In this document: positions 9,901 through 52,950 of the stretch, piece after piece
How the letters are laid out: every line of letters begins with the position of its first letter
Numbering within the stretch: position 1 is the stretch's first letter
Assembly (NCBI GenBank): GCA_044892525.1
Contig: CM097885.1
Span: 107,136,001-107,200,000, forward strand
Length of the DNA: 64,000 nucleotides
Direction: 5' to 3'
DNA from: Schmidtea polychroa
Taxonomy: Eukaryota
Translations under genes and position numbers: made by a program
The notes under the pieces: model-generated
Seen by the model: the letters and a program-made list of their open reading frames with translations, nothing else
The model's database searches: none
Told to the model about the DNA's origin: nothing

Positions 9901-10239
9901 GAAAGTCGATGTGAATACGCGTCGGTGACCAGTTTGCCGATCGGTAATAAATCTCTTCATTCTCCCGATGATTCAGAGTCTCTGTTGGTTAGCAAGAATC
10001 AGGACTCGTCAGTGACAGCGACAAATTACAATTTCCAGAATTTAAATTCAAGAGTCGCATTAACAGGTGTCGATTCAAAGAACGGCGGAAAGAAGTGTCA
10101 CCATTCGGCAGATCAGATCGATTGCAATAATACCGGGAAACCTGTAACTGGGTTCACTAACACAAATCCTTTCATTCGTGCTAGTTCCAATATGAGTAGA
10201 AAAGCTAGATTTATTTTATCTTGTTGTCGAACGTCCTAG
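6985..10239 (+). CDS. SNRK: SNF-related serine/threonine kinase (AMPK-related family), intronless, with UBA domain and long Ser-rich tail
   Basis: [37 protein letters not shown]-loop [32 protein letters not shown] and a UBA-like segment ending [12 protein letters not shown]. These match the SNRK pattern. Confidence 0.92.
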
Positions 10240-34036: not shown

Positions 34037-35183
34037 TCAAAAGGGCCCCGACATAAAGGCTTCCGGCAAAAGGCCTCTGATATAAGGGCCCTGGCAAAAA
34101 CGACCCCTGTCAAAAGGGCCCTCACCAATTGGATCGCGTAGATAGAAAATTGAATTGGATCTTAGTGAATGGTGATAATACACAACTTTATAACTACGTA
34201 CTTTCATGCATTTCATTCTATTATGAAATGCCAGTAAGCAAACCTGACTCTGTTTCTCCTTCTGTAAACAAGTATTTACACACATTAGGAGCCGTTACAT
34301 TTTGCTTGCAAACAAATTTTCCTGGGTTTATTTAATTTGTTTATTTAATAATAATTTTAAAAAAGGGGTCATCCATTTAAGATTGGCGGGTGGAGTCCAA
34401 AGCTGGACAATAATTACAGGGGGATTCTTGCCAAATTTGACGCCCAAAGATAAAGTTTTTCCAAAAGTTACAATTCGTCTTTTTTTTTTGATATTGTGAA
34501 TAAAAGTTTTTAAATCCTTTATAGTTCTTTATGTTCTCACTGAAACAGCAATTAAAGACCCAGTATGCGAAAACCTTTTAATTAACTGCCACTGAATGGT
34601 TGACACATTATGGAGTCCCTGGTATCTCCTTGGCACAAAGATCACAGATTGACAGTGGCTCATTAATTCCAGTTTCTCATATTTATTCTCAAAATCGTTG
34701 TGTGATGCGTCAAGCGATTTTGGATTAAAGTTGGGGAAAAAAATCCAATATTTTTCTGGACGTTCCGGGGGAGGGGGGTCTGGACGTGAGTGGACTGGAG
34801 AATCTAATATTTCTATACGTTTGTTATTACACATGAATATAGTACCATGGAATGGTTTTGGCGAGGGAGTAGTTGGACCAGGAGAGGCCGGAATAGTAAA
34901 TTTGGCACGAATTCGATCAATCTTGTCAGTGAAGAATTCACGGAATGCTTTAGCAAAAGTGGATTTATCATGCTGGTCAGGAAGAGAATATGTGGTGGTG
35001 CGGTGTAAAATAGAATTTAGGGTTTACCAGAGCGAGTGGGGATAAGTGTATAGTTGTTGATTGGGTGTGAAACTTCCAGAAACAGTGTGTTTTTGTTTAC
35101 TCAGTGTTTACGCGGGTCTATTGGCGGGGCCCTTTTGTCCGGTGGCCTTTATGTCGAGGCCGTTATGTCCCGGGTCCTTTTGA
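34037..35183. mobile_element. Non-autonomous TIR element with GC-rich subterminal tandem arrays (MULE/foldback-like)
   Basis: Left array of TCAAAAGGGCCC / ACATAAAGGC units at 34037-34125 and the inverse array ending GGGTCCTTTTGA at 35183. No clear TSD found. Confidence 0.45.
34860..35045 (-). pseudogene. Fragment of a CR1/L2-type LINE ORF2 (region upstream of RT)
   Basis: Minus frame reads HSLW*TLNSILHR...SLPDQHDKSTFAKAFREFFTDKIDRIRAKF, matching the LW..NSLL..R...F..FF..KI..IR pattern of these LINEs. Confidence 0.65.
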
Positions 35184-35508
35184 CGGGTCACCAGAAAAAG
35201 AATTGCTATTTCATTCAGGCATGCCGACCATAAAATTATTTTGTGGGTCAGATGAAATATTCTTTATTTTTAATATTTCATCTGACCCACAAAATAATTT
35301 TATGGTCGGCATGCCTGAATGAAATAGCAATTCTTTTTCTGGTGACCAGTCAAAAGGACCCGGGACATAACGGCCTCGACATAAAGGCCACCGGACAAAA
35401 GGGCCCCGCCAATAGACCCGCGTAAACACTGAGTAAACAAAAACACACTGTTTCTGGAAGTTTCACACCCCATCAACAACTATACACTTATCCCCACTCG
35501 CTCTGGTA
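35024..35508. repeat. Near-perfect inverted repeat (238/237-bp arms, 10-bp spacer)
   Basis: 35024-35261 is the reverse complement of 35272-35508 with about two differences; the mirror ORFs 35104..35322 (+) and 35211..35429 (-) reflect it. Confidence 0.95.
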
Positions 35509-35717
35509 ATAAACTGATATTTAAAAAAAAATTTTATAATAAAATTTTTTACTCTTCATATTAATTGATGAGTACTTTTAATTTTTTAATCTATTGTGTG
35601 TAATGAGGATAGAAGAATTTTTTGGTAAATAATTCTTTAAAAGAAAGAAAAATAATTGTCATAAATATGCAATTTATTTCTATTTATTAAATAACAAAAC
35701 AAACGAATTTCATAATA

Positions 35718-36212: not shown

Positions 36213-37332
36213 TGTATAACGCTAGGAAGTTTCTTTTCCGCTGTATTTACGGTGTCTACCAATTCATACTTTGCATCCACTTTTGGATATACTTGGATAT
36301 ACTACTTTAACTAAATTCTTTAATAACCCTTTTGTCTCATCGACTTCTAATTGTGACCTTCTAGGCTCTTTTTTATCTCATACAAAGTTCTAAGCTTTTT
36401 AGTAATAATTTCACTATTCATTTCGCTTTTTGATACCTGGCATTCATTTTGTACTTCTGTTATTTTACTTTTATCTTTGTCATTCGTTTCTAAGTCATTA
36501 TTGTCTATTACATTTTAACCTTTAGCTCTATTTTCATTTACATAATCTCCTTTTATATCACCATTTGACCTGACGGACTCATATACTGTATTTGATATCT
36601 GATTTTTAATTACTACTACATAATTCACTAAATATCGTGTATCTGAACGTAAGTATCCGTCTAAATCTAAATCTTGTGGTATAAACCAACAATCGTATAA
36701 ATATTCATCGTCATCTAACTCTTAACCTTTGAATATCAATAGAATAATCCCATCTTTTCACATTCTTTCAGCGGCTCCAATGTTCATCTATATACTCCGT
36801 TTTCCCATCATTTTCATAACCCAAAGCTATTACAAGTGGTTTTAATTTCAACTTGGTCTCTCTAATCTCTTTTCCTAACTTTTGCAATAAGCTAATTAAT
36901 TTCCATTTATACTTCGATCCTTTGATATAATATAATGGCCCTACTACATTTAAAATTTCTAATTTACTATTTTCGTCGAATTCCATTTCCTAAACTAATT
37001 TCAACTATTTGTTAATTTTATTTTATCCCACTCATTTAAAGTTTCTCTCAGTCCCCTTACAATTTTCTGTGGATCACTTTTAACCTTTGTATAATCGCTC
37101 GTCATTTTTGCTATCTTCACTTTATTTTTATTTCCCGATATAAAACTATAATCGATTAAAAGTCATCATTATGTAAACATCGATTTTTAAACTTCAACTT
37201 TAGTAACTGTTTCCCATCGGTCTCTTCTAATCTCTCCTTTAAGTCTTACACAATTTTCTACTTCACACCGAATATAAGCTAGATCTTTATTATTTTCATC
37301 TACAACATCAATCAACATAAAATCTAACCATG
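36213..37332 (-). mobile_element. Decayed retroelement accessory-ORF region (target of the Polinton insertion; continues at 52338-52573)
   Basis: ORF 52330..52554 (...YREITW) continues in frame after the TSD as LDFMLIDVVDENNKDLAYIRCEV. The region is homologous to the ORF at 17..391. Confidence 0.6.
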
Positions 37333-37665
37333 AGTAGTGAGGAATCTATGCACCCCAGCACCCCAACCCTCAAAAAAAACAGCGCTATTGACCCATATTT
37401 TCCACATTTATATGCTTTTTTACCCCATATTCTTCACTTTTTTTAACTTTTAAACTTTGTCCCCTATTGCCATTAACCCTTAATTTCTTCCCTTAAAAGT
37501 AAAAAAGTTCGGAATAGATGTATTTATAGATTAGTAATTCCGAGAAAAGGTAACGGGGTGCATAGATTCCTCACTACTTGGTCTTAAGGATTTAATGTTA
37601 TAAGGATTTAATGTTATAAGAATATCAGATTACCTAATTCATAATGATCTAGGTCGCCTGATCAC
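37333..37665 (+). repeat. Left TIR of the Polinton (333 bp)
   Basis: Reverse complement of 51999-52331; no mismatch found by eye. Confidence 0.95.
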
Positions 37666-38250
37666 CTTAAGGTTTTGAAAGTTTTAAAAATAAAAAATTT
37701 TATGAAAATAGTAAAACTGCTCTGAGGGGACAGTGGTATTTTTTTTTTTTTTTTTTTTTCACTGTCCCCTCAACAGTTTTTTTTGATCCGGATCATTTTT
37801 TTTTTTTTATTTATCAACCTCTTTCGTTTATCAAATCTCTTCCAATATACAAGCTGGCCAGACTCATACATCAGAATCAATCCGATAATAGCAGCACGCC
37901 TTATTATTCGCTTCTCGCTCACGAAGTCGATTTCAACGGCGTTTTAAGCGTGCTGCTCGAAAGTACAAATGAATTCGAAAGCGAATCCGAAAGAGGTCCG
38001 AAAACAACCAAGAAATAAATGTGCACATTATAGAATCGATCCGGGGGTGTTCGAAAGACAGGTGGCGATAATTACCGGTTCGCCACCATCACCCGTTTCA
38101 ATATTTTTTTTTTCATATTTATGTTTAAAAAATAATTAATTAATAAAAAAATAAAATAAAATAAAATAAATAAAATAAAATATACAAGTACTTTATAAAT
38201 ATAAGATACCCACACTATTATTTTCAAATTTTTAATATTATTTTATGTTG

Positions 38251-38333
38251 AAAAAAAACTAACCACAGTTAGGATTTGAACCGCTATCTATTTGAACCAC
38301 TGTGCCGGTCTAGCCCACTGCGCCATCAAGGTT
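38251..38333 (-). ncRNA. tRNA-like Pol III cassette 1
   Basis: A box TGGCGCAGTGG (38315-38325), B box GGTTCAAATCC (38272-38282), T8 terminator (38251-38258). No canonical cloverleaf. Confidence 0.55.
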
Positions 38334-38491
38334 TGAATTTTTGTCATTTTTTAGACTATAAATAATCGATTCAAGTTAAAACGTTTTTGATCTTAAATTT
38401 CCAAGAGTTGCCGTTGACCAATCACCTTTAAAACTTGTACAAGTACTAAATCGAGTATGCTGATCAATATTTTGTTTAAAAAAAAAATTTG

Positions 38492-38572
38492 AAAAAAAAT
38501 GACCGAAATGGGATTTGAACCCATTGGTATTGGCAATGCAGTCGAGTGCTATTACCACTAAGCTATACTCAA
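38492..38572 (-). ncRNA. tRNA-like Pol III cassette 2 (tRNA-Cys-derived appearance)
   Basis: GTATAGCTTAGTGGTAATAGCACTCGACTGCA resembles the 5' half of tRNA-Cys(GCA). Perfect T arm ATGGG-TTCAAAT-CCCAT and T8 terminator, but the anticodon and acceptor stems do not pair canonically. Confidence 0.6.
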
Positions 38573-38725
38573 TATGAAATAAGTTGTTAATGTGTGACTA
38601 TTTATTGATGAAATTAATAATTAATTATTCATTTTCTCGACAACTACCACTCAGATCCATCTGAAAATTTAAATATATACTAAAATCAGTACGCTGAATC
38701 AGATTCCGTTGAAAAAAAAATATCG

Positions 38726-38807
38726 AAAAAAATTGACCAAAATCGAAAATTGAACCCGGTACTCCCGGTGATAAAATTGAAGCCTATTCCCACTCCGCTA
38801 TAATGGC
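38726..38807 (-). ncRNA. tRNA-like Pol III cassette 3
   Basis: A box TAGCGGAGTGG (38790-38800), B-box-like GGGTTCAATT (about 38747-38757), T7 terminator. Confidence 0.5.
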
Positions 38808-38863
38808 TTACATAATATATTTAATTAATCCTATTGTGTGTGTGTAAATTTTAATATATAAAA

Positions 38864-40156
38864 ATGAATAATATAAATCTTAAAATTCAAGAAAAAAATA
38901 AATTAAATCTTGATTATAATAAAGAATTTACTCATGAAATCAAGAAAAACGATGTACTTAAAATCTCCCCAACTTCAGGATCTATTGCAAACTTAAATCG
39001 TAGGGGTGATATAGTTTTTCAATCTCTTCAAACATCAAACCCTATAGATATTTGTAATGCCAAATTATATTATAAAATCGAATTAGAAATTGAAGCAAAC
39101 AAAGATATAACCCTAGAAAATAATTTCTTTCCAAATTTATTCTCCAATATGAGATTAAAACTAGGATCATCAGAAATTGAAACTGTTTTACATCCGGGAG
39201 TATATTCTACAATGTTAAATTTTATTTTGACTGGTTGTGATTATAAAAACGAATATGGTGAATTAACAGGTTGGATTCCTGATGTTAATAAAGGGGATTT
39301 AGATAAAGATGGTTTAGATGTAAACCATGGTTACTATAAAAGAGCTGAACTTTATAAATCTAAAAAATTTGAAGGTTATTTTGAATTAAAACACTTGTTT
39401 GGATTCCTTCAAAACTATAATCGTATACTTCATAATGTTTTTATAGAATTCATCTGTAATAGAGTAGAAGGTGATAAAAGATTGTTCTATGGAGCTGTAG
39501 ATACAAAAGCTAAATTAAAATTATCAACACTTGAATTACATATACCTGAATGGACATTAAACCCACATTCTGAGATTAAACTCCTTGAAAGATTAAATTC
39601 CAACAAGTCTATAAATGTAAATTATTTAAATAGAATCTGTAGTGAATTTAGTATGACAGAGGGTTCAACATATTCTATAAAGGTAGCAAATTTAGCATAC
39701 CGACCAAGATATATCTTGATTGGATTCAAAGAAACAGATTCATCTTTCCAAAAAAATAACAATCTATTTATTCAAAAGATTGGAGATGATAATTTAAAAA
39801 CAATACAAATTCAATTAAATAGTTCTTATTATCCAATAAATAGAATGGAATTTAATATTGAAAATAATGAAAACATATTCCCATATCTAAATTATATTGA
39901 AACATGTTATGATTTCAAAGTTGAACCGCAATTAAGTTTAGAAGATTTCAAAAATTTATATTCTATATTTTGTATAAATGTATCAGACCAAGATGATCGA
40001 TTAGCCATAAATAATGTTGATGTTACACTTCATGTAACAAAGGATTCTAATTTTAAAGCTAAAGTATATACATTAATATTAGAAGAAAAGAAAATAGAAA
40101 TGAAATTATATGGTGGAAAGATTTCAATTATTGAAAATGTTAGGGGAGATTCTTGA
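38864..40156 (+). CDS. Putative major capsid protein (double jelly-roll, hexon-like)
   Basis: 430 aa, beta-rich, typical Polinton MCP size and position. Patterns such as FFPNLFSNMRLKLG, LKHLFGF, RPRYILIGF and YSIFCINVS resemble Polinton MCPs. Fold inferred. Confidence 0.8.
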   Translation: MNNINLKIQEKNKLNLDYNKEFTHEIKKNDVLKISPTSGSIANLNRRGDIVFQSLQTSNPIDICNAKLYYKIELEIEANKDITLENNFFPNLFSNMRLKLGSSEIETVLHPGVYSTMLNFILTGCDYKNEYGELTGWIPDVNKGDLDKDGLDVNHGYYKRAELYKSKKFEGYFELKHLFGFLQNYNRILHNVFIEFICNRVEGDKRLFYGAVDTKAKLKLSTLELHIPEWTLNPHSEIKLLERLNSNKSINVNYLNRICSEFSMTEGSTYSIKVANLAYRPRYILIGFKETDSSFQKNNNLFIQKIGDDNLKTIQIQLNSSYYPINRMEFNIENNENIFPYLNYIETCYDFKVEPQLSLEDFKNLYSIFCINVSDQDDRLAINNVDVTLHVTKDSNFKAKVYTLILEEKKIEMKLYGGKISIIENVRGDS

Positions 40157-40185
40157 TATAATCCCTGATATTTTAACATTTTAAA

Positions 40186-41592
40186 ATGTCTTTAAATAAA
40201 TATTGGAGATGTGAAACTTGTAATTGTCAAGTTACAAGACATCATAAAGCAAGCCATCTTAAAACTAAAAAACATACAGTAGGTGACCTAATTCCACGAG
40301 CTGGAGGCGATTTGCAATCTTCAAAAACAACATCTTCAATATTAAAACCTTTTACTACAGAAAAATATCCAGGTGAAAGACATTTATTTAAACACAACTA
40401 TACTGGACCAGGAACACGTCTAGATATTAGATTAGATGAAAATAATAATCCCAAACAAGGAGAAGAACCAATAAATAGAATTGATCAAGCAGCTTTAAAA
40501 CATGACATTGCATACAATTCAACAAATCTTAGAGATAGACATGTTGCAGATGTGAATTTAATACATGATTTAAATAGTATCCAAAATCCATCAACCCAAG
40601 AAAAGATTCAAAGAGCTCTAGTTAAATTAGCAATGAAAGGTAAGATTTTCATAGGCTTAGGACACAGTCCGATCACCATGGGTGCAAGACTTCATAGGAA
40701 AGCAAAAGATGTTGCTTATAAAAAGATTATCGAACAAGCAGACGCTGAAAGATCCCTCGAGAATATATCCAAGACTAGTTTACAAACCCCAACAGAATCA
40801 GAAATAAAATATGCAAAGGAATTACACCATGAATTTAGAAAAAATAAAAAATATTTAAAAGTTCAAGTACATGAAAAAGATCAAACATGGTCTGCAGATT
40901 TAGTCTTTATGCCCAAATCATCAGACCCTGAAAAATATAAAATAATTTTAACTGTAATAGATTTATATACAAGATTTGCTTTTGCAAGATGTTTAGAAAA
41001 TAAAACAGGATATTCTATTACAGAAGCATTTGAAAATATATTTGAAGAAAATCAAAGAATCCCAAAATATTTATGGTGTGATAAAGGAACAGAATTTTAT
41101 AACAAAGTTTTTACAAAGTTTTTAAATGAAAATGATATTAAATTATATTCAACAGAAAACGAAGGAAAAGCAGTCGTAGTTGAAAGATTAAATAGAACAT
41201 TAAAAAATAAAATGTGGAAATATTTTACTGCTATTGGAAAACAAAAATGGAACAATGAATTGTTACAAAAGATTGTAAATGAATATAATAATGATGTACA
41301 TAGTTCTATAAAATCAACACCTTTAAATGCTTCCATGAAGCCTGAAACCATTAAAGTGGTAAATATTGAAAATGATATTGAAAAACCAAAGTTTAAAATT
41401 GGTGACCGAGTAAGAATATTTAAATATAAAAATAAATTTGAAAAAGGATTCACAGCAAAATGGACAAATGAAATTTTTATTATAAATAAAATAAATTATA
41501 CAACTCCAATAACATATAGCATCTTTGATTTAAATAATGAAAAAATATTAGGTAGATTTTATAATAATGAACTACAGAAAACAGATTTTTAA
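40186..41592 (+). CDS. int: Retroviral-type DDE integrase with N-terminal zinc finger and parvovirus-type phospholipase A2 domain
   Basis: DDE residues in WSADLVFM / LWCDKGTEF / VVERLNRTLK, C-terminal KFKIGDRVRI...KWTNEIF region. PLA2 motifs YTGPG and DQAALKHDIAY. C-x2-C...H-x5-H finger at the start. Confidence 0.93.
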   Translation: MSLNKYWRCETCNCQVTRHHKASHLKTKKHTVGDLIPRAGGDLQSSKTTSSILKPFTTEKYPGERHLFKHNYTGPGTRLDIRLDENNNPKQGEEPINRIDQAALKHDIAYNSTNLRDRHVADVNLIHDLNSIQNPSTQEKIQRALVKLAMKGKIFIGLGHSPITMGARLHRKAKDVAYKKIIEQADAERSLENISKTSLQTPTESEIKYAKELHHEFRKNKKYLKVQVHEKDQTWSADLVFMPKSSDPEKYKIILTVIDLYTRFAFARCLENKTGYSITEAFENIFEENQRIPKYLWCDKGTEFYNKVFTKFLNENDIKLYSTENEGKAVVVERLNRTLKNKMWKYFTAIGKQKWNNELLQKIVNEYNNDVHSSIKSTPLNASMKPETIKVVNIENDIEKPKFKIGDRVRIFKYKNKFEKGFTAKWTNEIFIINKINYTTPITYSIFDLNNEKILGRFYNNELQKTDF

Positions 41593-41603
41593 GTCGACAA
41601 GCC

Positions 41604-42395
41604 CTAAAACAAACTTTTCCATATTTCAGCTTCTTCTCTATCCAAATAAATATAATTATATTTTTCTTTCCAATGATTATCAACAAACATATCAAACATA
41701 TTCTTATCAGGTTCAACATTTGAAAATAAATCATTATAAATCATATTCTTATCACGGCGATCTAATTTAAAAAATATAAAACAATTGGAATTATTTCTTA
41801 TTGAATTTTTATCTAAAGCATAATATGTTTGAGATATATAAATAACATTACAATTATTATGTCGACCTCGTGTAAAGTAACTCTTTTGAATCTCTTGATT
41901 TTTCATATTAACAACATCATCAAATATAACTAGATTCTTTTTATCTTTAGGAAGTAAATCACAATGTAAAACATCTTCAGGTTTATTAGAGAATAAAACT
42001 TGAATTGCCTCCTGCCCTTCTTCACAAATATAATCATTTTTATTACTAATATCTGATTCTAAAATCTTTTCCTTATACCAATCAACCATATCACAAGGTT
42101 GAAAAACTTCTTCAGGACACCTATGTTGATTTTTAAAAATATCAATTATTGCTTTTTTAGTTAATTTATTTTCAAATCCACATTTCAAAAGTTGTAATTC
42201 TGGTTGATTTATGGTTGTAGAATAAAAGATTAAATTATTATAATCTAAAAAATCATCTTCAAGTAACATTCTCAAAACAAGTACATTCTTTCCACATCCA
42301 GAAGAACCAACAATTAATAATCTAAAATTATCAGGAAATACTTTATTATTGAATTTACTCTTATGTCTATTTAAAATTGGTTTCCAAGTATCCAT
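41604..42395 (-). CDS. A32/FtsK-like genome-packaging ATPase
   Basis: Walker A GSSGCGKN, Walker B LVIFDD, and motif FTRGRHNNCNVIYISQ, typical of Polinton and poxvirus A32-like ATPases. Confidence 0.92.
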   Translation of the reverse strand: MDTWKPILNRHKSKFNNKVFPDNFRLLIVGSSGCGKNVLVLRMLLEDDFLDYNNLIFYSTTINQPELQLLKCGFENKLTKKAIIDIFKNQHRCPEEVFQPCDMVDWYKEKILESDISNKNDYICEEGQEAIQVLFSNKPEDVLHCDLLPKDKKNLVIFDDVVNMKNQEIQKSYFTRGRHNNCNVIYISQTYYALDKNSIRNNSNCFIFFKLDRRDKNMIYNDLFSNVEPDKNMFDMFVDNHWKEKYNYIYLDREEAEIWKSLF

Positions 42396-42411
42396 TTTTA
42401 TTTATTATAAA

Positions 42412-43020
42412 ATGACAACTGAAGAATCTTTGCAAGAATTAATAAATTCAAATAAAAATAAATCAGTAGTAATTGATGGTAAAAAATATTTTATTGGAAA
42501 ACATGTAAAAGAACAAGTTAGAGCGAAGCTCCACGAAGCTAAAGAAGGTGGCATTCTTCCATTAGCTGCTTTAATACCTGCAATCATTGCAGGTTTATCA
42601 GGTGCTGCTGGAATAGCTGGAGGAATTGCAACTACAGTTCAAAAAGCTAAAGAATCTCAAAAGACAGACCTAGAAAAAGAAAAACTACAAACTGAAATCG
42701 ATTCAATGAAGAAGGTAGGGCAAGCTAAAGGGGGAGTGTCCGTTGGAAAGGGTCTCTATCTTAATCCATATCAAGGGACTCCGTCTCAGGGGAGTCGGCA
42801 AAAGTCTCAGGGCAAAGGTCTCTATCTTGATCCTTATAAAGGTAGAAGTTTAAATGATTTTTTAAAAAATCAAATTTCTACATCTGAATCTTTATCTTCA
42901 AAAGATAAAGAAGATTTAAAAAAAATATGTAAATCTTTAAAGAATGGATGTCTTTGTAAAACTAAAAATGGCAAAGGTTTATACTTGAAGCCCTTTCCAA
43001 CGGATCCTTTACCAAAATGA
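42412..43020 (+). CDS. Putative virion core or membrane-active protein (Polinton PZ-like)
   Basis: Likely start is the ATG at 42412 (in frame with the track ORF). It contains GG|ILPLAALIPAIIAGLSGAAGIAGG and three GKGLYLxP repeats. Confidence 0.65.
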   Translation: MTTEESLQELINSNKNKSVVIDGKKYFIGKHVKEQVRAKLHEAKEGGILPLAALIPAIIAGLSGAAGIAGGIATTVQKAKESQKTDLEKEKLQTEIDSMKKVGQAKGGVSVGKGLYLNPYQGTPSQGSRQKSQGKGLYLDPYKGRSLNDFLKNQISTSESLSSKDKEDLKKICKSLKNGCLCKTKNGKGLYLKPFPTDPLPK

Positions 43021-43042
43021 TACCATTTTTAATACCATAAAA

Positions 43043-43912
43043 ATGGTATATGAAGAAAGATTAGCACTTTTAAAAAAATTACAATCAGAACAAGATAAAT
43101 ATAATAAAAAAGATACAAGTCAACATGCTGAATCTATAATATTAAATGAGGTAATAACACAACAACAGGGGCCAACAATTAAAGCTATAAAAGGATTAAA
43201 TGAGCAAGCAAAATTTAAAGAGTTAGAAGATGGAGGAAGTCCCCATGAACAAAAAATAAAAAAACTAGAGTGGAAGGAAGAATCCAGTGAAAACCATCCT
43301 GAAAGAAATCAAAGAAAACGCAGAAGAATTTCTAATGCGGAAGAAGAAGAAGAAATGTTTTTAAAAACAAAACCTCTTAAAGTTGATCCTAAAATTAGAG
43401 ATGATTTACCTCCTTCAATTAGACCCACATTTAATACTAATACTGAAGGATATCAAATAATAACAATTAATAAACAAAACTTTACTTTATATTCAAATTC
43501 AGAAAATAAATCACGTATTCATTCACAAAATGTTTATAATAATGAATATTTAGACTTTGAATTTACAGATGATTTTTATAAATTACTTTGTGGATATTCT
43601 TCAGATGATCTTGAAGAAATTAAAAAATATTTAAATTTAATAAGATTAATAAGAGCTGGTTCTAAAGCAAAATATATTCAAGATTTAAAGAATTATTTAG
43701 ATAAAAATGAAAAGGGTTATGTTGTTACAGAGGGAGAGGGATTAATTAGTGAAGGAAATTCCATCAATCTTTTTATTGAATTAAGAAAACTATTAGCTGC
43801 AAGGAAAGCAGGACATAATAATTTAGATTCTGATATTTTAAAGATTTCTAAAGATTTGTTAAAACAAGGAATAATTTCAAAAGATAAATTTAATAAGTAT
43901 ACGAAGTTATAA
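43043..43912 (+). CDS. Polinton hypothetical protein (possible core or DNA-binding protein)
   Basis: Intact 289-aa ORF co-oriented within the structural gene block; basic NLS-like RKRRR and a C-terminal ELRKLLAARKAGHNN motif. Confidence 0.7.
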   Translation: MVYEERLALLKKLQSEQDKYNKKDTSQHAESIILNEVITQQQGPTIKAIKGLNEQAKFKELEDGGSPHEQKIKKLEWKEESSENHPERNQRKRRRISNAEEEEEMFLKTKPLKVDPKIRDDLPPSIRPTFNTNTEGYQIITINKQNFTLYSNSENKSRIHSQNVYNNEYLDFEFTDDFYKLLCGYSSDDLEEIKKYLNLIRLIRAGSKAKYIQDLKNYLDKNEKGYVVTEGEGLISEGNSINLFIELRKLLAARKAGHNNLDSDILKISKDLLKQGIISKDKFNKYTKL

Positions 43913-43964
43913 ATACGAAGTTATAAAATACGTAGTTTTAAAATACGAAGTTTTAAAATACAAA

Positions 43965-44417
43965 ATGACTCCTTCAATATTAGATTTTTTAAAAACATTT
44001 GGAATAAATGCAAAAACAAATTTTGATTTAAAAGATTATGCAAATTATTTAAATTTAAAAATTAAAATATTAATGAATGATGAATTATCAAGTCTGGAGA
44101 GTCCCCTGAATATAATAATCAATTATCAAAATTCAAATGAAAAAGGATCTCATTGGGTTTGTATATATAAGAAATCTATCTACTTTGATTCTTTTGGGAT
44201 TAAACCTACTAAAGAAGTTGAAGATTATCTCTTGAGGGGTTCTCCGATTGATTCCCCAAATGGTTATACTTTTAACTCTTTACAAGTTCAACCTTTGAAT
44301 ACTAAAATATGTGGTATTTTAAGTTTATATGTTTTGTATAGATTGAATATGGGGCATACGCAGGATTTTGAATCTATAATTCAAGAAATTTATAATGATC
44401 TAGAATCTCTACTATAA
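43965..44417 (+). CDS. Adenain-like cysteine (maturation) protease
   Basis: GSHWVC (His), YFDSFG (Asp), QP...CG (Gln, Cys): the adenoviral protease catalytic pattern. Confidence 0.92.
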   Translation: MTPSILDFLKTFGINAKTNFDLKDYANYLNLKIKILMNDELSSLESPLNIIINYQNSNEKGSHWVCIYKKSIYFDSFGIKPTKEVEDYLLRGSPIDSPNGYTFNSLQVQPLNTKICGILSLYVLYRLNMGHTQDFESIIQEIYNDLESLL

Positions 44418-44465
44418 GGATTTTTACTATAAGGATTTTTACTATATGAATTTACTACTAAAGAA

Positions 44466-45230
44466 ATGGAGCTTCACAACCCTCCGGAAGATAATTTAAA
44501 AAAAATGGTAAACATAATGTCAGATAAATATTCAAGAACTTTATCTATAAATTCAAAAGAATCAGAGTTTACTATAAACTTTCAAGATTCAATTAAATTA
44601 GATCAAAATTTAAATTATGAATTGGGGCTATTATGGTTTTGTGCTTATAATACTATTTTTAATATAACTAAAGATAATAATAAATTTACTATTCAAACTC
44701 GTGATGGGCATAAACCAGAAATTATAACAATAGAACCTGGGGCATATGAGATAAAAGATTTAAATGATATACTTTCTAAAAAAACAAATGAAGGAATTAA
44801 AATTAAAATGGATATACCAACTTCAAAATGTGTAATGACTTTGAAGAATATAAAAATTAGTTTTTTAGATAATTGTTTCTTTCACACAGTTTTAGGATTT
44901 AAACCTATGGATATAACAATAAAAGAAGATAAAATAATAACATCAGAACATATTATAAAAATAATAAATACAAACACAATAAATATTCATTGCGATTGTA
45001 TAACAGGTTCTTATAATAATGGTAAACAAACAAATGTTTTATATTCCTTTCCCTCAAACACAGTTCCTATGGGATATAAAATAGTTGAAAGAATGAATCC
45101 TCCAAATTATTTACCTTTATGTAGAAAATATATAATGGATATTAATTTTAAAATTCTTAATCAAGAAGGAGAATTGATTGATTTTAATGGAGAAGAGATT
45201 TCAATGTATTTACATTTGAAACAGGTTTAA
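44466..45230 (+). CDS. Putative minor capsid protein (penton-like single jelly-roll)
   Basis: 254 aa; IEPGAYEIKDLN and INIHCDCITGSYNNGKQTNVLYSF...YLPL...DINFKILNQEGELIDFNGE patterns resemble Polinton minor capsid proteins. Confidence 0.8.
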   Translation: MELHNPPEDNLKKMVNIMSDKYSRTLSINSKESEFTINFQDSIKLDQNLNYELGLLWFCAYNTIFNITKDNNKFTIQTRDGHKPEIITIEPGAYEIKDLNDILSKKTNEGIKIKMDIPTSKCVMTLKNIKISFLDNCFFHTVLGFKPMDITIKEDKIITSEHIIKIINTNTINIHCDCITGSYNNGKQTNVLYSFPSNTVPMGYKIVERMNPPNYLPLCRKYIMDINFKILNQEGELIDFNGEEISMYLHLKQV

Positions 45231-45256
45231 CGAAGTCCATTTTAAATTATTAATAA

Positions 45257-46267
45257 ATGAGTTCTTATATTCCATGTAATAGAGGTGGTGGAACAATAAA
45301 AACAGGGTTTAATACAGAAGAAATATTAACTTTAACAGAAAATAAATATATTAATGAAAGAGGTGATTCAATGAAGGGTGATTTAATTTTAAATGGACAC
45401 AAGATAAAAGAATTATCTTTTCCAACTGATGAAGCTGATGCAGTTAATAAGAAATATGTAGATGGTGTTAAAAAATATACTGATTTAACAACAACAAGAA
45501 TTGAAAGTTCATTAACAACAAAAATTGATTCAATGGAATCAAAGCTTAATAATATCGAACAACGATTTAATGATAAATTTGACAAGTTACAAAGTCTGTT
45601 AACTGAACAAGTTGTAAAGTTAAATACTGCTATATTAAATTCTAAAGATAAACAAATTATGAATACTAAATTTAATGCAATATATAATATAATAAATGAG
45701 ATGATTACATCATTTAATAAAAGAATTTCAAATTTAGAGTCTCGTGGAACACACACTAACACCACACATAGTATTAGAAAAAGAGCTGCTGAATTAGAAC
45801 AGAATAAAACATTATTACCCCATACATATAAACATTTTATAGAACCAAGTTTAATAACAACAAACAGTAAAGAATGGGGTGTTTTTATGGTTGTAAAAAT
45901 TATTGATCCTTATTTCTTTTTGTTTGATGATGATAATGAAAGAATGAAATGGTTTGTGAAATGTGATTATAATAGTAAGCTTGAAAAGGGTGATGTTATA
46001 ATGACTAGTTATGATTTACCACACGGAGATTGGTATGTTAATACTCATTCACATGGACTACATAAAGTTAAAAGTAAGAATATTCATTTTTCTAGTTCAC
46101 TTGTACAATATATAGATTTAATATTTTATGAAAAAAAGGTTGATGTTGATGAAGTTCGTAAAGCATTGAGAGAATTGTATAAAGATATCCTCTCAACAAG
46201 AGTTTCTTTTGATATCCGAGTATTGGTGCCAGATGGTGCTCAGAAGAATAAAGTCTTATTTTTTTAA
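45257..46267 (+). CDS. Putative fibre or receptor-binding protein
   Basis: GDSMKGDLILNGHKIKELSFPTDEADAVNKKYVD resembles a phage and virus fibre repeat, followed by a long heptad coiled coil and a beta-rich C-terminal domain. Confidence 0.55.
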   Translation: MSSYIPCNRGGGTIKTGFNTEEILTLTENKYINERGDSMKGDLILNGHKIKELSFPTDEADAVNKKYVDGVKKYTDLTTTRIESSLTTKIDSMESKLNNIEQRFNDKFDKLQSLLTEQVVKLNTAILNSKDKQIMNTKFNAIYNIINEMITSFNKRISNLESRGTHTNTTHSIRKRAAELEQNKTLLPHTYKHFIEPSLITTNSKEWGVFMVVKIIDPYFFLFDDDNERMKWFVKCDYNSKLEKGDVIMTSYDLPHGDWYVNTHSHGLHKVKSKNIHFSSSLVQYIDLIFYEKKVDVDEVRKALRELYKDILSTRVSFDIRVLVPDGAQKNKVLFF

Positions 46268-46275
46268 TTATTAAA

Positions 46276-46872
46276 ATGGAAGAAGTAAGAGAAGAAAAAT
46301 TTTACCCCGAATTGAGATCATCAGGATATTATTCTTCCAAGGCCTCGGCTCCCACAGAACTTGAAATTATGAGAGTAAAAGAATTTAAATCAGAAACCTT
46401 ACATTTACAAGATTTATTAAAGCATTATAAAAAAATTAAAAATAGATGGAATAAAGGGAATACAGTTTTAAAAGTTATAGGTTATTCTTTAGGATTTGCA
46501 TCTGCAATATTAACAGTTATTTTACCCATAACTTTACCAGTTGTTACTCTTGCACCTGTAATACTTGGAAGTATTTCTGTGGCTGATGGTTTCTTAACTG
46601 AAATAGTTTCATTATCTTATACTTCTAAAAAGAAAAGTTTATATAGAGAAGTTTGTTTATCAATAGAATTAGGAATCTCTAAATTATTTTTATTTCAATT
46701 AAAAGCTTTGGAAGATGGAATCCTGACAGACGAAGAAATAATGAAATCAAATCAAATAATACAAGATATAAAGAATGAGGTTATAAGATTAAAAAGGGAG
46801 GGCATGGTGGCTAATGTTATAAGTAATAAAAAAACATCTCGAGAAAAATGGTTAAAGAATTCTTACTTATAA
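46276..46872 (+). CDS. Small hydrophobic-hairpin membrane protein of the Polinton
   Basis: Central hydrophobic stretch VLKVIGYSLGFASAILTVILPITLPVVTLAPVILGSISVA, then KALEDGILTDEEI motif; intact ORF. Confidence 0.65.
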   Translation: MEEVREEKFYPELRSSGYYSSKASAPTELEIMRVKEFKSETLHLQDLLKHYKKIKNRWNKGNTVLKVIGYSLGFASAILTVILPITLPVVTLAPVILGSISVADGFLTEIVSLSYTSKKKSLYREVCLSIELGISKLFLFQLKALEDGILTDEEIMKSNQIIQDIKNEVIRLKREGMVANVISNKKTSREKWLKNSYL

Positions 46873-46966
46873 AATGGGTGTATTTTTAAAAAAGTAGATC
46901 AGGTTGCTATAGTTGCTTAAATTAATTGTCGACATTTTATTATTAAAAAATTAAATATCGTTGGTT

Positions 46967-47521
46967 TCAGTTATGGTTGAAAGCCAACCTATGAATCATT
47001 AATTTATGATCTTTAAATTCTTTATCACTTAGACCTTTTATATATTCAGGATCAGTATTAAAATATTTAAGTTCTAAACATATAGGATTAAAAACTTGAG
47101 AATATAAAGGTTTCTCGATTTCTCTCTCGGGATAAATAATTTCAACATTATAAATATCAAGATCAGTAATCTTTGTATCATATAACTTATTCAACTTTTC
47201 TAGATTTTTTATTATAGGGATTAAATTATTTCCAATAGGTAGAGTTGTCTTTAAATCACTTAGTATGAATCTCTTATCATCATAATTTGATAATGATACT
47301 TTTTGAGATTCTATCAAGTGAATATCATGGTTTTCACTTTTAAGTTGATGTATTTCATCAATTTTATCTTTATGATTTGGATTCAATGTATCTATATAAT
47401 CTTGATGAGAAAGATTCTTTGCAACCACTCTCTGTATTCCTTTACATCTGTTATCCTTTAAATTAGTAATATTTTTTATAATTTCAAAAATGTTATTTTC
47501 TTGATTTTTAGTTTCCATCAT
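46967..47521 (-). CDS. Stand-alone paralogue of the pPolB C-terminal region (184 aa)
   Basis: Aligns to the last ~170 aa of PolB (KGIQ...NYDDKRFILSDLKTTLPIGN...LKYFNTDPEYI). It has its own ATG and upstream motif. Confidence 0.85.
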   Translation of the reverse strand: MMETKNQENNIFEIIKNITNLKDNRCKGIQRVVAKNLSHQDYIDTLNPNHKDKIDEIHQLKSENHDIHLIESQKVSLSNYDDKRFILSDLKTTLPIGNNLIPIIKNLEKLNKLYDTKITDLDIYNVEIIYPEREIEKPLYSQVFNPICLELKYFNTDPEYIKGLSDKEFKDHKLMIHRLAFNHN

Positions 47522-47545
47522 TTTATAGTGTTAAAATTCTAATTC

Positions 47546-50500
47546 TTAGACCAGTCGTAATTGATTTATAATTATTTCTGCAGTAATGCTTTTTAACATT
47601 AATTTATGTGATTTAAAGTCTTCTGGTGTTAGTCCTTGGATATATTCAGGATCAGTATTAAAATATTTAAGTTCTATAGGTTTTATATTTTGAACTTGAT
47701 TATATAAAGGTTTAGGAATTAATATTTCAGGATATTGGATTTCTACTTTAGCAAGTTGAAGGTCTGTAATCTCTAGGTTATAAATTTCATTTATTTTATC
47801 AAGATTTTTTATTATAGGGATTAAATCATTTCCAATAGGTAATGTTGTCTTCAAGTCAGAAAGTATAAATCTTTTATCATCATAATTTGTTATAGCAATC
47901 TTGTTACACTCTTCAAGATATATATTATGTTTCTCTGATTTAAGATGATGGGTTTTAGCAATTTTATTTTTATAATTTATATTTAATGAATCTTTATACT
48001 CTTGATGTGTGAAGATTTTTGACACTGATTTTTGAATTCCTTTACTTTTATTTTCTTTATAGCTTTTCGGGTTTTCAGGGAATGAAGGATATTCAAATGT
48101 GTGATCTATTTCAACAGATCCTTCTCCCTCCCCTATTATAAATTTTATTGTATGCTCTTTCATAATTGGGTTGTCTTTCATTTCAAGAGAATATTGTTTA
48201 GGTCTAATAAACACTCCTCCACTTATTGGAGTATTTGGTTTTTCATCTTTAAAAGTAAATAATTCTCCAGAGTTGTTTATTAATTTATTTAAGGTTTCGT
48301 TTTCACTTATTTCCTTTTTTAAATCTTTACTATGACCTTTTAAAAACATACTATCAGTGTCCATAGCATGCATGGATATTCGATCTCCAAAATGTGGTAC
48401 TAGAACATCATAGTAGGCTTCATACATTTGAAGCTTTGAAAGTTCTAAAATTGAAAACCCTATAAAGATTGGTTTATTATAAGTTTTTACAGAGTTTTTA
48501 ATCTCTATGGCTATAAGGTTACTAGAGAATATCTCGGCATTTTTAAATGTGGGCTTTCCAATTATCCGGTTGTACCTATTAAGGTCTTTGGATGTATTGG
48601 TCAAAAGCTCTACACGTGTGTACTTGTCTATATTCTCCATGGTCTTTCCAAAGACCGCATTGTTCAGGAGTTTGTAAATCATATCAAGAAATGCATTTCC
48701 AGCTCTCTTTGCTGCATTTCTTTTCAAAATATTTCCCTCTATGAATTTTTTCATAAAAGGGGCTTGTCGAAATTTAATAATGGAATGTACTTTTTTTAAA
48801 ACCATTCCATGGGAGAGATAAAACTGAAGGAGTCTATAATGACAAAGGTAATCAGTTTTATCGGTCTGATCGCATAAAAGTTTTATACAGGGCGATCTAT
48901 CCTGAGCCATCTGCCAGTCTGAAAGTTCTTCAGTCGAGATCTTTCTTCTTACTGGAGCAAATGGAAAGAATCTTGTCCTGGATTTTATTTCATTGGGATA
49001 TTCAAGATCGCATTCTATGACATATCCAAATTGAGAATCTTTTGGTGTTTTTAGAATTTCTTGTATTAATTCCTCAGTGGGCTCTTCCCAGGTGAACTTG
49101 CCAATTGGAAGGTATTGAGTCATTACTCCCGCATATAAAGCTGTTGCATCTATATACATTATTTCAGAAGGATTAGAAAGACCTTCCATTATTTCCTTAC
49201 GATCTTCTGGGTTTGTTATTTCTACATATAGAGCATCAGGATCTTTGAAAAATTTAGGATAAAGAGTTGTAAAATTATTAGCATTTATTTCTCTATTCCC
49301 TTGTACTGAAGAAATACCTCCTCTAATATTATGTTTATATACATTAAACATATCAAGCTCAACTAATAATTCAATAGTTTTATTTCTTACTGCTACATCT
49401 TCATCAGTCCATATGGTATATAATAATATATCCCAAGCTAGAGAGGGAGCGGTTATATAATTATAAGGTTTTAATTCAAAAGCTTTTGAAAATGTCTCGA
49501 AGCAATCAGCTAAGATATAAACATCCAAGGAAAGATACATGTCAGTATATTCTCCAAGGTTTCTACAGTTGAATAGATTCCACATTTTAACTGCACGGGA
49601 ATATTCCTGATCAGAAATCCCTGATTGTGTTAAAACAGAAAAGAAATCTTCTTGGGGTGGGAGTAATTCATTATATTTTTCAAAGGAGTCTATATAATCA
49701 TATGGATAGATTCCTTTTGCTAGACAGGTATTATATTCCTCTAATGGAATATTGTTTTTTAATAACACATGTTCTTTTGTATATTTAAAATCCTCAGGGT
49801 TCATAGTTTTAGCAATCCCATCCAAAGACATCCCTAAGAAATTTAACGAGTCCAAAAACTTAAAGCATCCATATTGAATGCTTTTATATTTTTCTTTTGT
49901 AAGTCCAATAACCTTGAAAGAGTTTTTAGCATTTGCGGCCAGATGCTTAATGAATAGGTGAATATCATAGCCAAAAAGATTGTGAAATATAAATGGTATG
50001 TGTGTTGGTTTTTTACAATTGAGATTACATTTTTTATGGGCTGCTCCTCTGTAATTATTTTCTCTTTTAAAATGATCATGGTCTGCAACCTTTGGCTCCT
50101 CATCCTCAAACTCTTGTTTACACATCCAGCAGTGTGTTGCATTTTTATATTCTTCCTCTTGTTCTTCTGAAAAATTCATAGGAAAGTTGGATTTTAATAT
50201 TATATATAATTCATGTTCTAGATTATTTAAAGTTTTAACAAAATGATCTAGAGTCTCTTTGTCAGAAGTTCCTCTAAATGAATATTCTCTAGATTCTACA
50301 AGTTCTGGATAATTACTTTTAAAAAACATTTTATAAGCAGAGGGTAATTGTTTTGTTAGTTTTACAGTATTAGTTTTTGTTCGTCTTAGTTTTACATTTA
50401 TAGCTTCAAAATCACAATAAACCACTCCCAATGCTTCTAATAGATTGGAATAGTTTTTAAACCTCATATTAGCATTTTTCTTGTGTGGCATTTTTATTAA

Positions 50501-51925
50501 AGCAGGTTGATTCTTACAACAGAGTCTCTCATGTTTAATAGCAGCAAGTTTTGAACTTGAATGATATAAACATCTTTTACAACATATGCCTCCACGAATG
50601 AGTGTGTTTCCTTTCATAAAACTTTGAAAATTCTTTATTAAGATATAATGAAGTTTTTTATCTAACATAGTGCCTCCGGACGCAGTGCTTTCTGCTTCTG
50701 GTTCTAATGAAATGCCTTCTTCTGCTTCTCTCCTCGGGTGAACGCTTTGAACCTCTTCACCATATTCTTCTCCATCAAAGTCTTCATCTGGTTTACCTTC
50801 TTCTAATATTAAAAGATCTACTTCTCTCTTTTCATCTGAGATTTCCATGTTAGAAATGTAAATAGGAATAATGTGTTTATAATTTTTATTTTTTCTAGTT
50901 TTTGTAATTTTGGTTGGAATGAATTGATAAATATTAATTTTAAGATTATTTAATTTTTCAAATGCTGGAACATCTTCAATTTTCATTGGGTGGGAAAAAT
51001 CTTTTGGATAAATTAATTCAGATTCATATTCTTCATATTTTTGAACTCTCTGTGGGTTAGTTGCTTGAGGATGTAAGTGTGCAAGTATTGACCATTGAAA
51101 ACATTTATTATCTTTATTCTGTACATTTATAACATGGTTGGAGGTGAATGGTGTGTGAATAAAAGATTTAGGATTTGGTGGTGCGCCTCTCCAGTATTCA
51201 ATCTCTATATTTTGAAAAGAGTGGAATCTTAAATTAGATTCTCCTAGTTCTTGTTCCACCTGTTCTTGTTTTTCTTCCAATTCTTTAGCTATATCATTAA
51301 CAAGTTTATTTCCTGCTTTTGTAGAAAATAAATATTTATATGAGGTTTCAATTTTTACATCTAGAGGCATTGCGATTGAATCATCTCCTCTCCAGTATTT
51401 TGCATTTCCTGTAAATTTAACTTTTATAACATTAAATCTTGATCTACCAAATTTTTTTATAGCATCATCCATTGATGATATTATTTTTTTTTTATTTTCT
51501 CTTATATATTGCATGATTGATCTGGGTCCTCGTTTTACTTCTGCAATTACATCGGTGTGATTGAAGTCATCCCAATTAAACTCTAGTTTTTCAGCTTTTT
51601 CAGTCATTGAGTTTGAATCAGAATCTTTTGCTTCAAGACCACAATCTTCTATGTGTCTTAAGTAAAAAGATTTTATCCTCATCGTTTTTCCACATGCTGA
51701 ACATTCGAATATTTCTCTGTTTTTAGGAACTCCAATACAATTTTTAAAATGCTTCTTATAACCTGAAAATAAATATCTATCCTTACATTTAGTACAGATT
51801 TTGGAATTAGTGTCATCTAGTGTGTTAGCTTTTATTAAATGGTCTTTTGATTTTTTATGAGATGTTAAAGCAGTTTTATTTTTAAAATTTTTTTCACAAA
51901 TTTCACAATTGAAAATAGCTTCCAT
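47546..51925 (-). CDS. polB: Protein-primed family B DNA polymerase
   Basis: Exo I YCDFE, Exo II HNLFGYD, Exo III YLSLDV, Pol A YIDATALY, Pol B KLLNNAVFGKT, Pol C DTDS. N-terminal zinc fingers, CFQWSILAH...HYILIK protease-like segment, and EndoVII-like CWMC...DHDH...HKKCN insert. Confidence 0.97.
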   Translation of the reverse strand: MEAIFNCEICEKNFKNKTALTSHKKSKDHLIKANTLDDTNSKICTKCKDRYLFSGYKKHFKNCIGVPKNREIFECSACGKTMRIKSFYLRHIEDCGLEAKDSDSNSMTEKAEKLEFNWDDFNHTDVIAEVKRGPRSIMQYIRENKKKIISSMDDAIKKFGRSRFNVIKVKFTGNAKYWRGDDSIAMPLDVKIETSYKYLFSTKAGNKLVNDIAKELEEKQEQVEQELGESNLRFHSFQNIEIEYWRGAPPNPKSFIHTPFTSNHVINVQNKDNKCFQWSILAHLHPQATNPQRVQKYEEYESELIYPKDFSHPMKIEDVPAFEKLNNLKINIYQFIPTKITKTRKNKNYKHIIPIYISNMEISDEKREVDLLILEEGKPDEDFDGEEYGEEVQSVHPRREAEEGISLEPEAESTASGGTMLDKKLHYILIKNFQSFMKGNTLIRGGICCKRCLYHSSSKLAAIKHERLCCKNQPALIKMPHKKNANMRFKNYSNLLEALGVVYCDFEAINVKLRRTKTNTVKLTKQLPSAYKMFFKSNYPELVESREYSFRGTSDKETLDHFVKTLNNLEHELYIILKSNFPMNFSEEQEEEYKNATHCWMCKQEFEDEEPKVADHDHFKRENNYRGAAHKKCNLNCKKPTHIPFIFHNLFGYDIHLFIKHLAANAKNSFKVIGLTKEKYKSIQYGCFKFLDSLNFLGMSLDGIAKTMNPEDFKYTKEHVLLKNNIPLEEYNTCLAKGIYPYDYIDSFEKYNELLPPQEDFFSVLTQSGISDQEYSRAVKMWNLFNCRNLGEYTDMYLSLDVYILADCFETFSKAFELKPYNYITAPSLAWDILLYTIWTDEDVAVRNKTIELLVELDMFNVYKHNIRGGISSVQGNREINANNFTTLYPKFFKDPDALYVEITNPEDRKEIMEGLSNPSEIMYIDATALYAGVMTQYLPIGKFTWEEPTEELIQEILKTPKDSQFGYVIECDLEYPNEIKSRTRFFPFAPVRRKISTEELSDWQMAQDRSPCIKLLCDQTDKTDYLCHYRLLQFYLSHGMVLKKVHSIIKFRQAPFMKKFIEGNILKRNAAKRAGNAFLDMIYKLLNNAVFGKTMENIDKYTRVELLTNTSKDLNRYNRIIGKPTFKNAEIFSSNLIAIEIKNSVKTYNKPIFIGFSILELSKLQMYEAYYDVLVPHFGDRISMHAMDTDSMFLKGHSKDLKKEISENETLNKLINNSGELFTFKDEKPNTPISGGVFIRPKQYSLEMKDNPIMKEHTIKFIIGEGEGSVEIDHTFEYPSFPENPKSYKENKSKGIQKSVSKIFTHQEYKDSLNINYKNKIAKTHHLKSEKHNIYLEECNKIAITNYDDKRFILSDLKTTLPIGNDLIPIIKNLDKINEIYNLEITDLQLAKVEIQYPEILIPKPLYNQVQNIKPIELKYFNTDPEYIQGLTPEDFKSHKLMLKSITAEIIINQLRLV

Positions 51926-51998
51926 TTTTAAAAGAATCTTTTGGTTGGATACGATGTTTTGGTTTTGATATTAATTTTTATTTTTTTTAAATCTAAAA

Positions 51999-52331
51999 GT
52001 GATCAGGCGACCTAGATCATTATGAATTAGGTAATCTGATATTCTTATAACATTAAATCCTTATAACATTAAATCCTTAAGACCAAGTAGTGAGGAATCT
52101 ATGCACCCCGTTACCTTTTCTCGGAATTACTAATCTATAAATACATCTATTCCGAACTTTTTTACTTTTAAGGGAAGAAATTAAGGGTTAATGGCAATAG
52201 GGGACAAAGTTTAAAAGTTAAAAAAAGTGAAGAATATGGGGTAAAAAAGCATATAAATGTGGAAAATATGGGTCAATAGCGCTGTTTTTTTTGAGGGTTG
52301 GGGTGCTGGGGTGCATAGATTCCTCACTACT
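51999..52331 (-). repeat. Right TIR of the Polinton (333 bp)
   Basis: Ends ...CACTACT followed by TSD ACCATG. Confidence 0.95.
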
Positions 52332-52950
52332 ACCATGTAATTTCTCGATACGTTTTACCAAATATTTTCATCACATTTTCAAATTCGTTTCCATCTTTCA
52401 AATTTACATCATAATAATCGGCACACAGGTCAATTACAACTTTCAATTTTCGAATCCTCAGTGCCATTTGACTCAAGTCATTTAGCGATGAGATTACTTT
52501 AGATGTTTCTGTTGATAAATTTCTGTTAAATTTGTTGATCCTCAGCATAATCATTGTTATTTTTTCTCTTTCATACTATAGTAAATTATCGCTATATAGT
52601 TTATTTTTAAAAATCTGGATTTCCCAGATGGTAATATTTTATATTTTAGTATACACAATTCCTAATTGTGAATACTAAAATATTAACAAAAATAACTGTA
52701 CATTACATAACTTCCCCTTTTAAAACCGGAGGTTAACATGAATCAATAAAAAGTACGTAAAAAAAAATTACATTCAATAACCTTTTTTTTCGTATGTTTT
52801 ATATGTTTTTGTGTTTTTTTTTTCTGTTTCTTTGTATCTACAACTTCAATAAAATTAAAAATTTACATTTTGTTTTGTATTTACAAGAAAAATAAAAACT
52901 GTACAATTAACGCTGTTTGTGCGTGTGTTTGTTTGTGTATGTTTGTGTTT

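Follow-up and report, generated by a model that had tools for sequence, protein, structure and literature searches.

Where does a transposon that carries virion genes obtain its replication machinery, and do its capsid genes still serve particles? The question is raised by an element of ~15 kb in Schmidtea polychroa, located at positions 37333-52331 (forward-strand coordinates) of a 64,000-nucleotide stretch of genomic DNA, hereafter the window (assembly GCA_044892525.1, contig CM097885.1, positions 107,136,001 to 107,200,000); this contig is the largest in the 781-Mb assembly. An initial annotation, made from the sequence alone, had read the element as a young and intact Polinton encoding capsid proteins. 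Our analysis indicated that it is indeed a young capsid-encoding Polinton, but the annotation foresaw neither the huge family to which this copy belongs nor its recombinant nature. In our preferred reading, which we regard as quite probable, the element is an intact and very young capsid-encoding Polinton and a likely chimera, formed when a member of one lineage (B) had its polymerase arm and terminal inverted repeats (TIRs) replaced with those of a sister lineage (A), and it is now present in ~750 copies.

The element contains no undetermined bases and is bounded by TIRs at 37333-37665 (plus strand) and 51999-52331 (minus strand) that are identical over 333 bp, with the first mismatch at TIR position 334 and gapped similarity continuing to ~376 bp. 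Polinton/Maverick elements are recognized by AGT-repeat termini and a 6-bp target-site duplication (TSD). Both were found here, the long TIRs ending in AGTAGT...ACTACT and the motif ACCATG flanking the element at 37327-37332 (plus strand) and 52332-52337, so that the matching TIRs and exact TSD reported in the annotation were borne out. The 11 uninterrupted open reading frames (ORFs) that it listed are likewise all open, start with ATG and tile the interior of the element with products of 150-1459 amino acids (aa); one of them, however, of 184 aa, is the leftover end of a replaced polymerase.

Origin of the polymerase arm

Comparison of the window with itself revealed a 75% internal duplicate between the end of the polymerase gene and the 184-aa ORF. 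The wider family was sampled through a 28-mer of the capsid gene, which occurs 2,022 times in the genome (controls, 0); every fifth of the first 100 listed places was taken, giving 20 loci. Seven were type A, carrying the polymerase PolB-A, and eleven were type B, with one hybrid with a third family and one tandem fragment making up the remainder. Type B copies have the capsid-integrase arm in common with type A, together with a polymerase (PolB-B) that is 57-58% identical to that of A and other TIRs of up to ~1 kb; no relationship joins the left type-A TIR and the outer TIR of B, between which the best local alignment scored only 23.

The identity of the window copy to lineage B stops at a single base, which places the recombination junction between the B-derived arm and a foreign polymerase arm at 47460-47461. 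Over 37683-47460 as a whole, the window copy matches its closest B copies at ~95-100% identity. Against the closest of 10 B copies, identity was 96-100% in nearly all 500-bp bins between 37833 and 47333, and from 47833 on it was 67-79% to all of them. At the left end, B-derived sequence begins at 37683, directly inside the A TIR, with a remnant of the B inner TIR (37683-38377) comprising a hairpin (38061-38088) and the first of the RNA polymerase III (Pol III)-type units described below. This segment occurs at both ends in B and at the left end only in A, and of 10 B copies examined 7 have the hairpin at their right end, as against none of 7 A copies. Residues 21-184 of the 184-aa ORF (46967-47521, minus strand) are 92-98% identical to PolB-B C-termini, and its 20 further codons are fused in frame from the foreign arm; we regard this ORF as a stranded polymerase C-terminus.

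The same junction recurs throughout the genome, with a 30-mer across it occurring 753 times and the end of PolB-A 761 times (controls, 0), and PolB-A ends adjoined the B-polymerase remnant in all 30 cases fetched. The B counterpart of the junction 30-mer was found 823 times, an undercount because B is the more diverse lineage. Diversity in B exceeded that in A in all seven regions compared (0.062 versus 0.018 in the polymerase core), the A and B polymerases formed sister groups among 31 homologues in FastTree, and the remnant nested within the B polymerase ends in a FastTree phylogeny rooted on the paralogous segment of PolB-A. The summed contig depth of PolB-A relative to the capsid arm, which is not a measure of copy number, was ~1/3 in run X1 and below 1/10 in run X5, hinting at a lower abundance of type A elsewhere than in the first sample. 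Contigs from two runs, possibly of RNA, covered parts of the element. No joint across an empty site was among those listed, the flanks being themselves repeats, and free linear ends were not reported from the assembled contigs, a kind of data in which they would not show.

By analogy with Polintons and protein-primed replicons, a copy would be released as linear DNA, replicated by its own polymerase from origins in the TIRs and re-inserted by its integrase with a 6-bp duplication. Linear genomes of A and B present in one cell could have recombined near the 3′ end of the polymerase gene, yielding a molecule with the left arm of B and the right arm of A. The A TIR may then have been copied to the left end, as by strand-displacement replication through a panhandle, and polymerase and origin would therefore have stayed matched while the hybrid multiplied to ~750 sites. 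The A-type ends also have an architecture of their own: the first 246 nt (37333-37578) can fold back because the terminal 24 nt recur inverted at 37555-37578 (minus strand), so that a short inverted repeat delimits each A-type end on its own, and this internal copy was not found in three B-type ends. At one further locus (L017), a 126-nt terminus was observed inverted within the left end.

Age of the family and competing explanations

The terminal 39-mer occurs 205 times in the genome, and among the first 100 of these places we found 27 other pairs of ends spaced by ~15 kb, which together with the window copy constituted a full-length set of 28 (two shorter pairs were left out, and two 30-kb pairs were handled apart). 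Perfect 6-bp TSDs flanked all 28 copies, one pair with common flanks not being independent. Pairwise distances ranged from 0.0009 to 0.0163, and the window copy has a nearest neighbor at 0.0015 and 6 private substitutions in 15 kb; the identical TIRs, the few private changes and a sister copy 0.15% away confirmed the youth and intactness claimed in the annotation. Regarding copy number and divergence, to which the annotation had looked as a check, the copies are young (median distance, 0.0068), but this one is no rarity among ~2,000 capsid loci. With 17 of the 20 sampled loci near full length, the 2,022 loci correspond to an estimated ~3% of host DNA.

Within the 28-copy set, the ratio of nonsynonymous to synonymous substitution rates (dN/dS) was 0.25 on shared variants and 0.39 on single-copy variants, and on shared variants it was 0.08 for the capsid gene, 0.23 for the penton gene and 0.18 for the ATPase gene. 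The copies are also mosaic: four-gamete conflicts, scored over 206 sites in 27 copies, stood at 24% for distances below 200 bp and climbed to 40-46% over greater distances. Given the selection on the capsid, penton and ATPase, the element probably had a packaged stage until recently, and the chances appear about even that these proteins, together with the protease, still package genomes into particles at present.

Several observations weigh against this reading. All 11 ORFs retain at least 95% of their length in only 7 of the 28 near-identical copies, a set that is itself biased to young copies because it was picked by the exact terminal 39-mer, and a full-length A or B polymerase frame was present in 6 of the 20 sampled loci. 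Each selection estimate rests on few variants per gene, and no purifying signal came from the fibre-like ORF (1 synonymous and 5 nonsynonymous shared variants). Purifying selection is a mark of recent function, not of present particles, and gene conversion between chromosomal copies could be the source of the mosaicism. Since the remnant phylogeny is rooted on a long branch (0.53 substitutions per site) with modest root support (0.81) and covers a segment of 460 bp, the direction of the swap leans also on the diversity data. No parental A-type element that combines PolB-A with a capsid arm of its own was found among the PolB-A ends (761 ends versus 753 junctions; all 30 fetched ends recombinant), and the A donor is therefore one that we infer. 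A candidate structured RNA at 37850-38105 gained no support, as it folded no better than shuffled sequences (z -0.5 and -1.4).

The exchange could have run in the opposite direction, with A being ancestral and its 184-aa ORF an accessory gene derived from an old polymerase-tail paralogue, and B having fused another polymerase body on. The TIR arguments cut both ways because TIR length varies among copies (333 and 438 bp in A, ~1 kb in B), the start context of the 184-aa ORF is like that of the other ten genes, and every one of the 28 near-identical copies has the ORF at full length. However, the lack of breaks is not telling because only ~1 would be expected in 28 copies for so short an ORF at the polymerase break rate, and one of the 7 A copies in the even sample has it broken; with B more diverse than A everywhere and the A remnant nested inside B, we consider this order of events unlikely. 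Far more improbable still is an artefact of assembly, in which collapsed or mis-joined repeats would have produced the youth, the copy number or the junction: one copy pair has common flanks, some matches lie on small contigs, and sequencing errors may explain some of the frame breaks, yet copies with differing 6-bp TSDs lie on all four large contigs, the identical junction recurs hundreds of times, and both arms are covered by contigs of independent runs.

A more serious competitor is spread within cells only, by a self-synthesizing transposon that makes no infectious particles and whose capsid genes stem from a recent viral past or serve intracellular packaging. Intracellular transposition would account for thousands of chromosomal copies, each with a TSD of its own, at least one gene is broken in 21 of the 28 copies, and no relative was confirmed in viral contigs. 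Metagenomes yielded 4 short loci without useful flanks. On the other hand, the shared variants in the capsid, penton and ATPase genes are mostly synonymous relative to site counts, a full capsid frame persists in 16 of 20 evenly sampled loci, and adintovirus DNA has been described as co-purifying with nuclease-treated insect-cell particles (PMC8502044). We hold intracellular spread to be quite possible, if somewhat short of an even chance. At the other extreme, a live recombining population of thousands of polintovirus proviruses, with extrachromosomal module exchange, packaging into particles, a fitter lineage that arose by a single replacement of polymerase plus origin and swept to ~750 copies, a working polymerase-tail protein and Pol III small RNAs from the left end, seems rather doubtful. 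A very young, likely chimeric Polinton with a polymerase arm and TIRs from lineage A remains the reading that we prefer.

Gene products and left-end units

By every decisively tested feature the element is a Polinton/Maverick, the protease being assigned on motifs only. The 430-aa ORF (38864-40156, plus strand) matched Pfam DJR-like_dom (E 1.3e-26), and its AlphaFold model (predicted local distance difference test [pLDDT], 89.5) matched the major capsid proteins of Sputnik, PBCV-1 and mavirus (best E 2.4e-14). The 254-aa ORF (44466-45230, plus strand) had no match in Pfam; its model (pLDDT, 85.2) matched the mavirus penton (E 8.3e-11), adenovirus penton bases and adomavirus LO5. By predicted fold, the 430-aa protein belongs with the double jelly-roll and the 254-aa protein with the single jelly-roll capsid proteins, the latter as a penton (minor capsid protein) of the kind expected in polintoviruses. 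The annotation had staked its interpretation on these two ORFs being jelly-roll capsid proteins, and the predicted folds upheld it.

The remaining Polinton hallmark genes were recognized in Pfam. A 468-aa protein (40186-41592, plus strand) combines an rve integrase domain (PF00665, E 8.1e-12; residues D238/D299/E333) with an N-terminal parvovirus-type phospholipase A2 (PLA2)-like domain (Phospholip_A2_4, E 1.6e-8) that contains PLA2 motifs, and the 263-aa product (41604-42395, minus strand) is an A32/FtsK-type packaging ATPase with Walker motifs (Pox_A32, E 9.7e-9). The 1459-aa product (47546-51925, minus strand) is a protein-primed family B polymerase (PF03175, E 1.6e-14) in which motifs Exo I-III and Pol A-C were located; its named matches, 30-35% identical, are in insects, a tick and a mollusc, and PDB sequence searches with it returned nothing significant. 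A Cys/His motif pair that might belong to the OTU-like domain expected N-terminal to the polymerase core of an adintovirus is visible in the translation, but no OTU match came from Pfam (aa 241-442) or from profile searching against PDB. Catalytic motifs are present in the polymerase, integrase, ATPase, PLA2 domain and putative protease.

Assignments of the other products were more tentative. The 150-aa protein (43965-44417, plus strand) carries His63, Asp75, Gln109 and Cys116, presumably the motif set of an Ulp1/adenain-type cysteine protease, and is a putative maturation protease for which Pfam and PHROG gave no significant profile match. A basic protein of 202 aa (42412-43020, plus strand) with a hydrophobic Gly-rich stretch matched Adeno_PX below the cut-off (E 0.044) and might conceivably be a pX-like core protein, and a charged protein of 289 aa (43043-43912, plus strand) had no significant family in Pfam or PHROG. 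For the 336-aa ORF (45257-46267, plus strand), the label fibre-like given in the annotation survived in weakened form, resting on a PHROG tail-fibre match (E 1.1e-5) to aa 35-95 only, with coiled-coil-type Pfam matches below the cut-off and no match at 0.9 or above in a separate search. The 198-aa protein (46276-46872, plus strand) has a long hydrophobic stretch at aa 64-113, and the clusters similar to it are viral and eukaryotic.

The interval separating the left TIR from the capsid gene holds three minus-strand units of ~72 nt, spaced ~240 bp apart, each with an A box, a B box and a T run in the order of type 2 Pol III genes (38254-38325, 38495-38570 and 38728-38800, the B box of the third being deviant). 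No such unit arose in 2,000 shuffles, and none was found elsewhere in the window. Adjacent units (1-2 and 2-3) align better than shuffled sequences, whereas units 1 and 3 do not. The closest likeness to tRNA was that of the second unit (Rfam RF00005, 26.7 bits, below the 29-bit cut-off), and ARAGORN at default settings found no cloverleaf tRNA in any of the three. At least one unit was present in all 20 sampled capsid loci, with one to three per end. Pol III-type boxes with T-run terminators are familiar in DNA viruses from adenovirus VA RNA and gammaherpesvirus TMERs, from which the present units differ in being known from sequence alone; that they are bound or transcribed by the Pol III machinery is, in our judgment, an evenly balanced proposition.

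Related loci, known systems and wider meaning

The repetitive flank of the Polinton also holds a Gypsy-type long terminal repeat (LTR) retrotransposon at 52574-58054, ~240 bp from the right end, whose two 134-bp LTRs are identical and whose gag (~399 aa) and pol (1061 aa) frames are both open. The contrast drawn by the annotation with mostly decayed neighbors was therefore overstated, and the intactness of the Polinton is not unique locally because this adjacent element is intact too. Elsewhere in the window, an open 1084-aa frame at 6985-10236 (plus strand) encodes an N-terminal Ser/Thr kinase domain (Pkinase, E 1.8e-71) and is probably SNF-related, its exact sequence not being found in the protein collection, and a near-perfect palindrome at 35024-35509 (238-nt arms, 99% complementary, 10-nt spacer) is possibly a miniature inverted-repeat transposable element or a fold-back element.

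Several related loci deserve mention in their own right. Neither of the two 30-kb TIR pairs proved to be a dimer, since in one a 15-kb insertion separates the halves of a copy, and the other, over the 20 kb fetched, holds one copy plus unrelated polymerase fragments. The A-type copy at L075-L078 (G000:C1:265140870-265171174) is interrupted by 15 kb of inserted sequence with a gag-like frame and itself sits in a polymerase gene 77% identical to that of type A, evidence of another related lineage. The hybrid at L137+L138 (G000:C1:23897806-23914805) consists of a capsid arm cut in the 336-aa ORF, an AGTAGT end with the polymerase of a separate Polinton family, and a B-type inner TIR; it is possibly a one-off intermediate of nested insertion and deletion, and we rejected it as a third swap, as its polymerase belongs to a family with its own capsid genes. 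That separate family (L181-L192) is very abundant, with a polymerase 28% identical to the element's and its own integrase, ATPase-like and 355/407-aa frames; all 150 scored matches, among 11,872 first-look candidates, were 98-100% identical to the query. Pol III-type units were not seen in the fetched parts of six of its copies, the far ends lying outside those parts. At L141+L142 (G000:C1:26303778-26320777), the left part only (Pol III units, capsid gene and integrase start) is repeated in tandem three times in 17 kb. Four B-type loci (L111, L117, L133 and L139) have penton, protease and 289-aa regions at 62-85% protein identity to the window and a capsid gene at 96-98%, showing further module exchange within the virion arm.

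Both capsid-encoding Polintons and polymerase swapping have already been published. The polintoviruses (Polintoviricetes; PMC11161782) are like our element in their TIRs, 6-bp TSD, protein-primed polymerase (pPolB), rve integrase, packaging ATPase, protease motif, and double and single jelly-roll capsid proteins, and the polinton polymerase is described there as carrying an N-terminal terminal-protein domain; to this set our element adds the stranded polymerase C-terminus, the row of Pol III-type units and a family of ~2,000 loci in one animal genome. Adintoviruses (Starrett et al. 2021, PMC8502044) resemble it in their animal host, core genes, PLA2-like domain, fibre-like ORF and exchange between replication and virion modules. 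However, the PLA2 domain of our element is fused to the integrase, in contrast to the PLA2X gene with a pX tail in adintoviruses, and the element is known here from assembled sequence, not as free linear DNA. In nematode Polintons (Jeong et al. [quoted passage not shown] By contrast, the polymerases compared here are sister lineages (58%), the TIRs changed along with them, the breakpoint and remnant are visible, and the junction is repeated 753 times. No swap that left a visible remnant and replaced the TIRs as well was reported in the literature searched, no search having been aimed at the remnant and supplements lying outside its scope.

As regards animal Polintons with Pol III or tRNA-like units, the same literature, again exclusive of supplements, offered only the tRNA genes of polinton-like and MELD viruses (PMC12220804; PMC8502044). 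Those genes (PMC12220804) share internal Pol III boxes and T-run terminators with our units, which differ from them in not being cloverleaf, in their ~72-nt length and in occurring one to three per end. Elsewhere, Polintons have been described as piRNA targets in a planarian (PMC8532177), and Mavericks as expanded in Dugesia (bioRxiv 10.64898/2025.12.11.693146).

The evidence considered here for particle production by animal Polintons is indirect, consisting of the co-purification of adintoviruses with insect-cell particles (PMC8502044) and the expression of Polinton core genes in corals (PMC11131425), and a search for particles has good prospects in a genome with ~2,000 young copies whose capsid genes are under selection. 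As a Polinton the element is ordinary; its value lies in the replacement of polymerase plus TIRs with an expansion to 750 copies, a replication-module swap of which the breakpoint, the remnant and the parent lineage are all still present. This arrangement suggests that a polymerase and its terminal origin may have to travel together.

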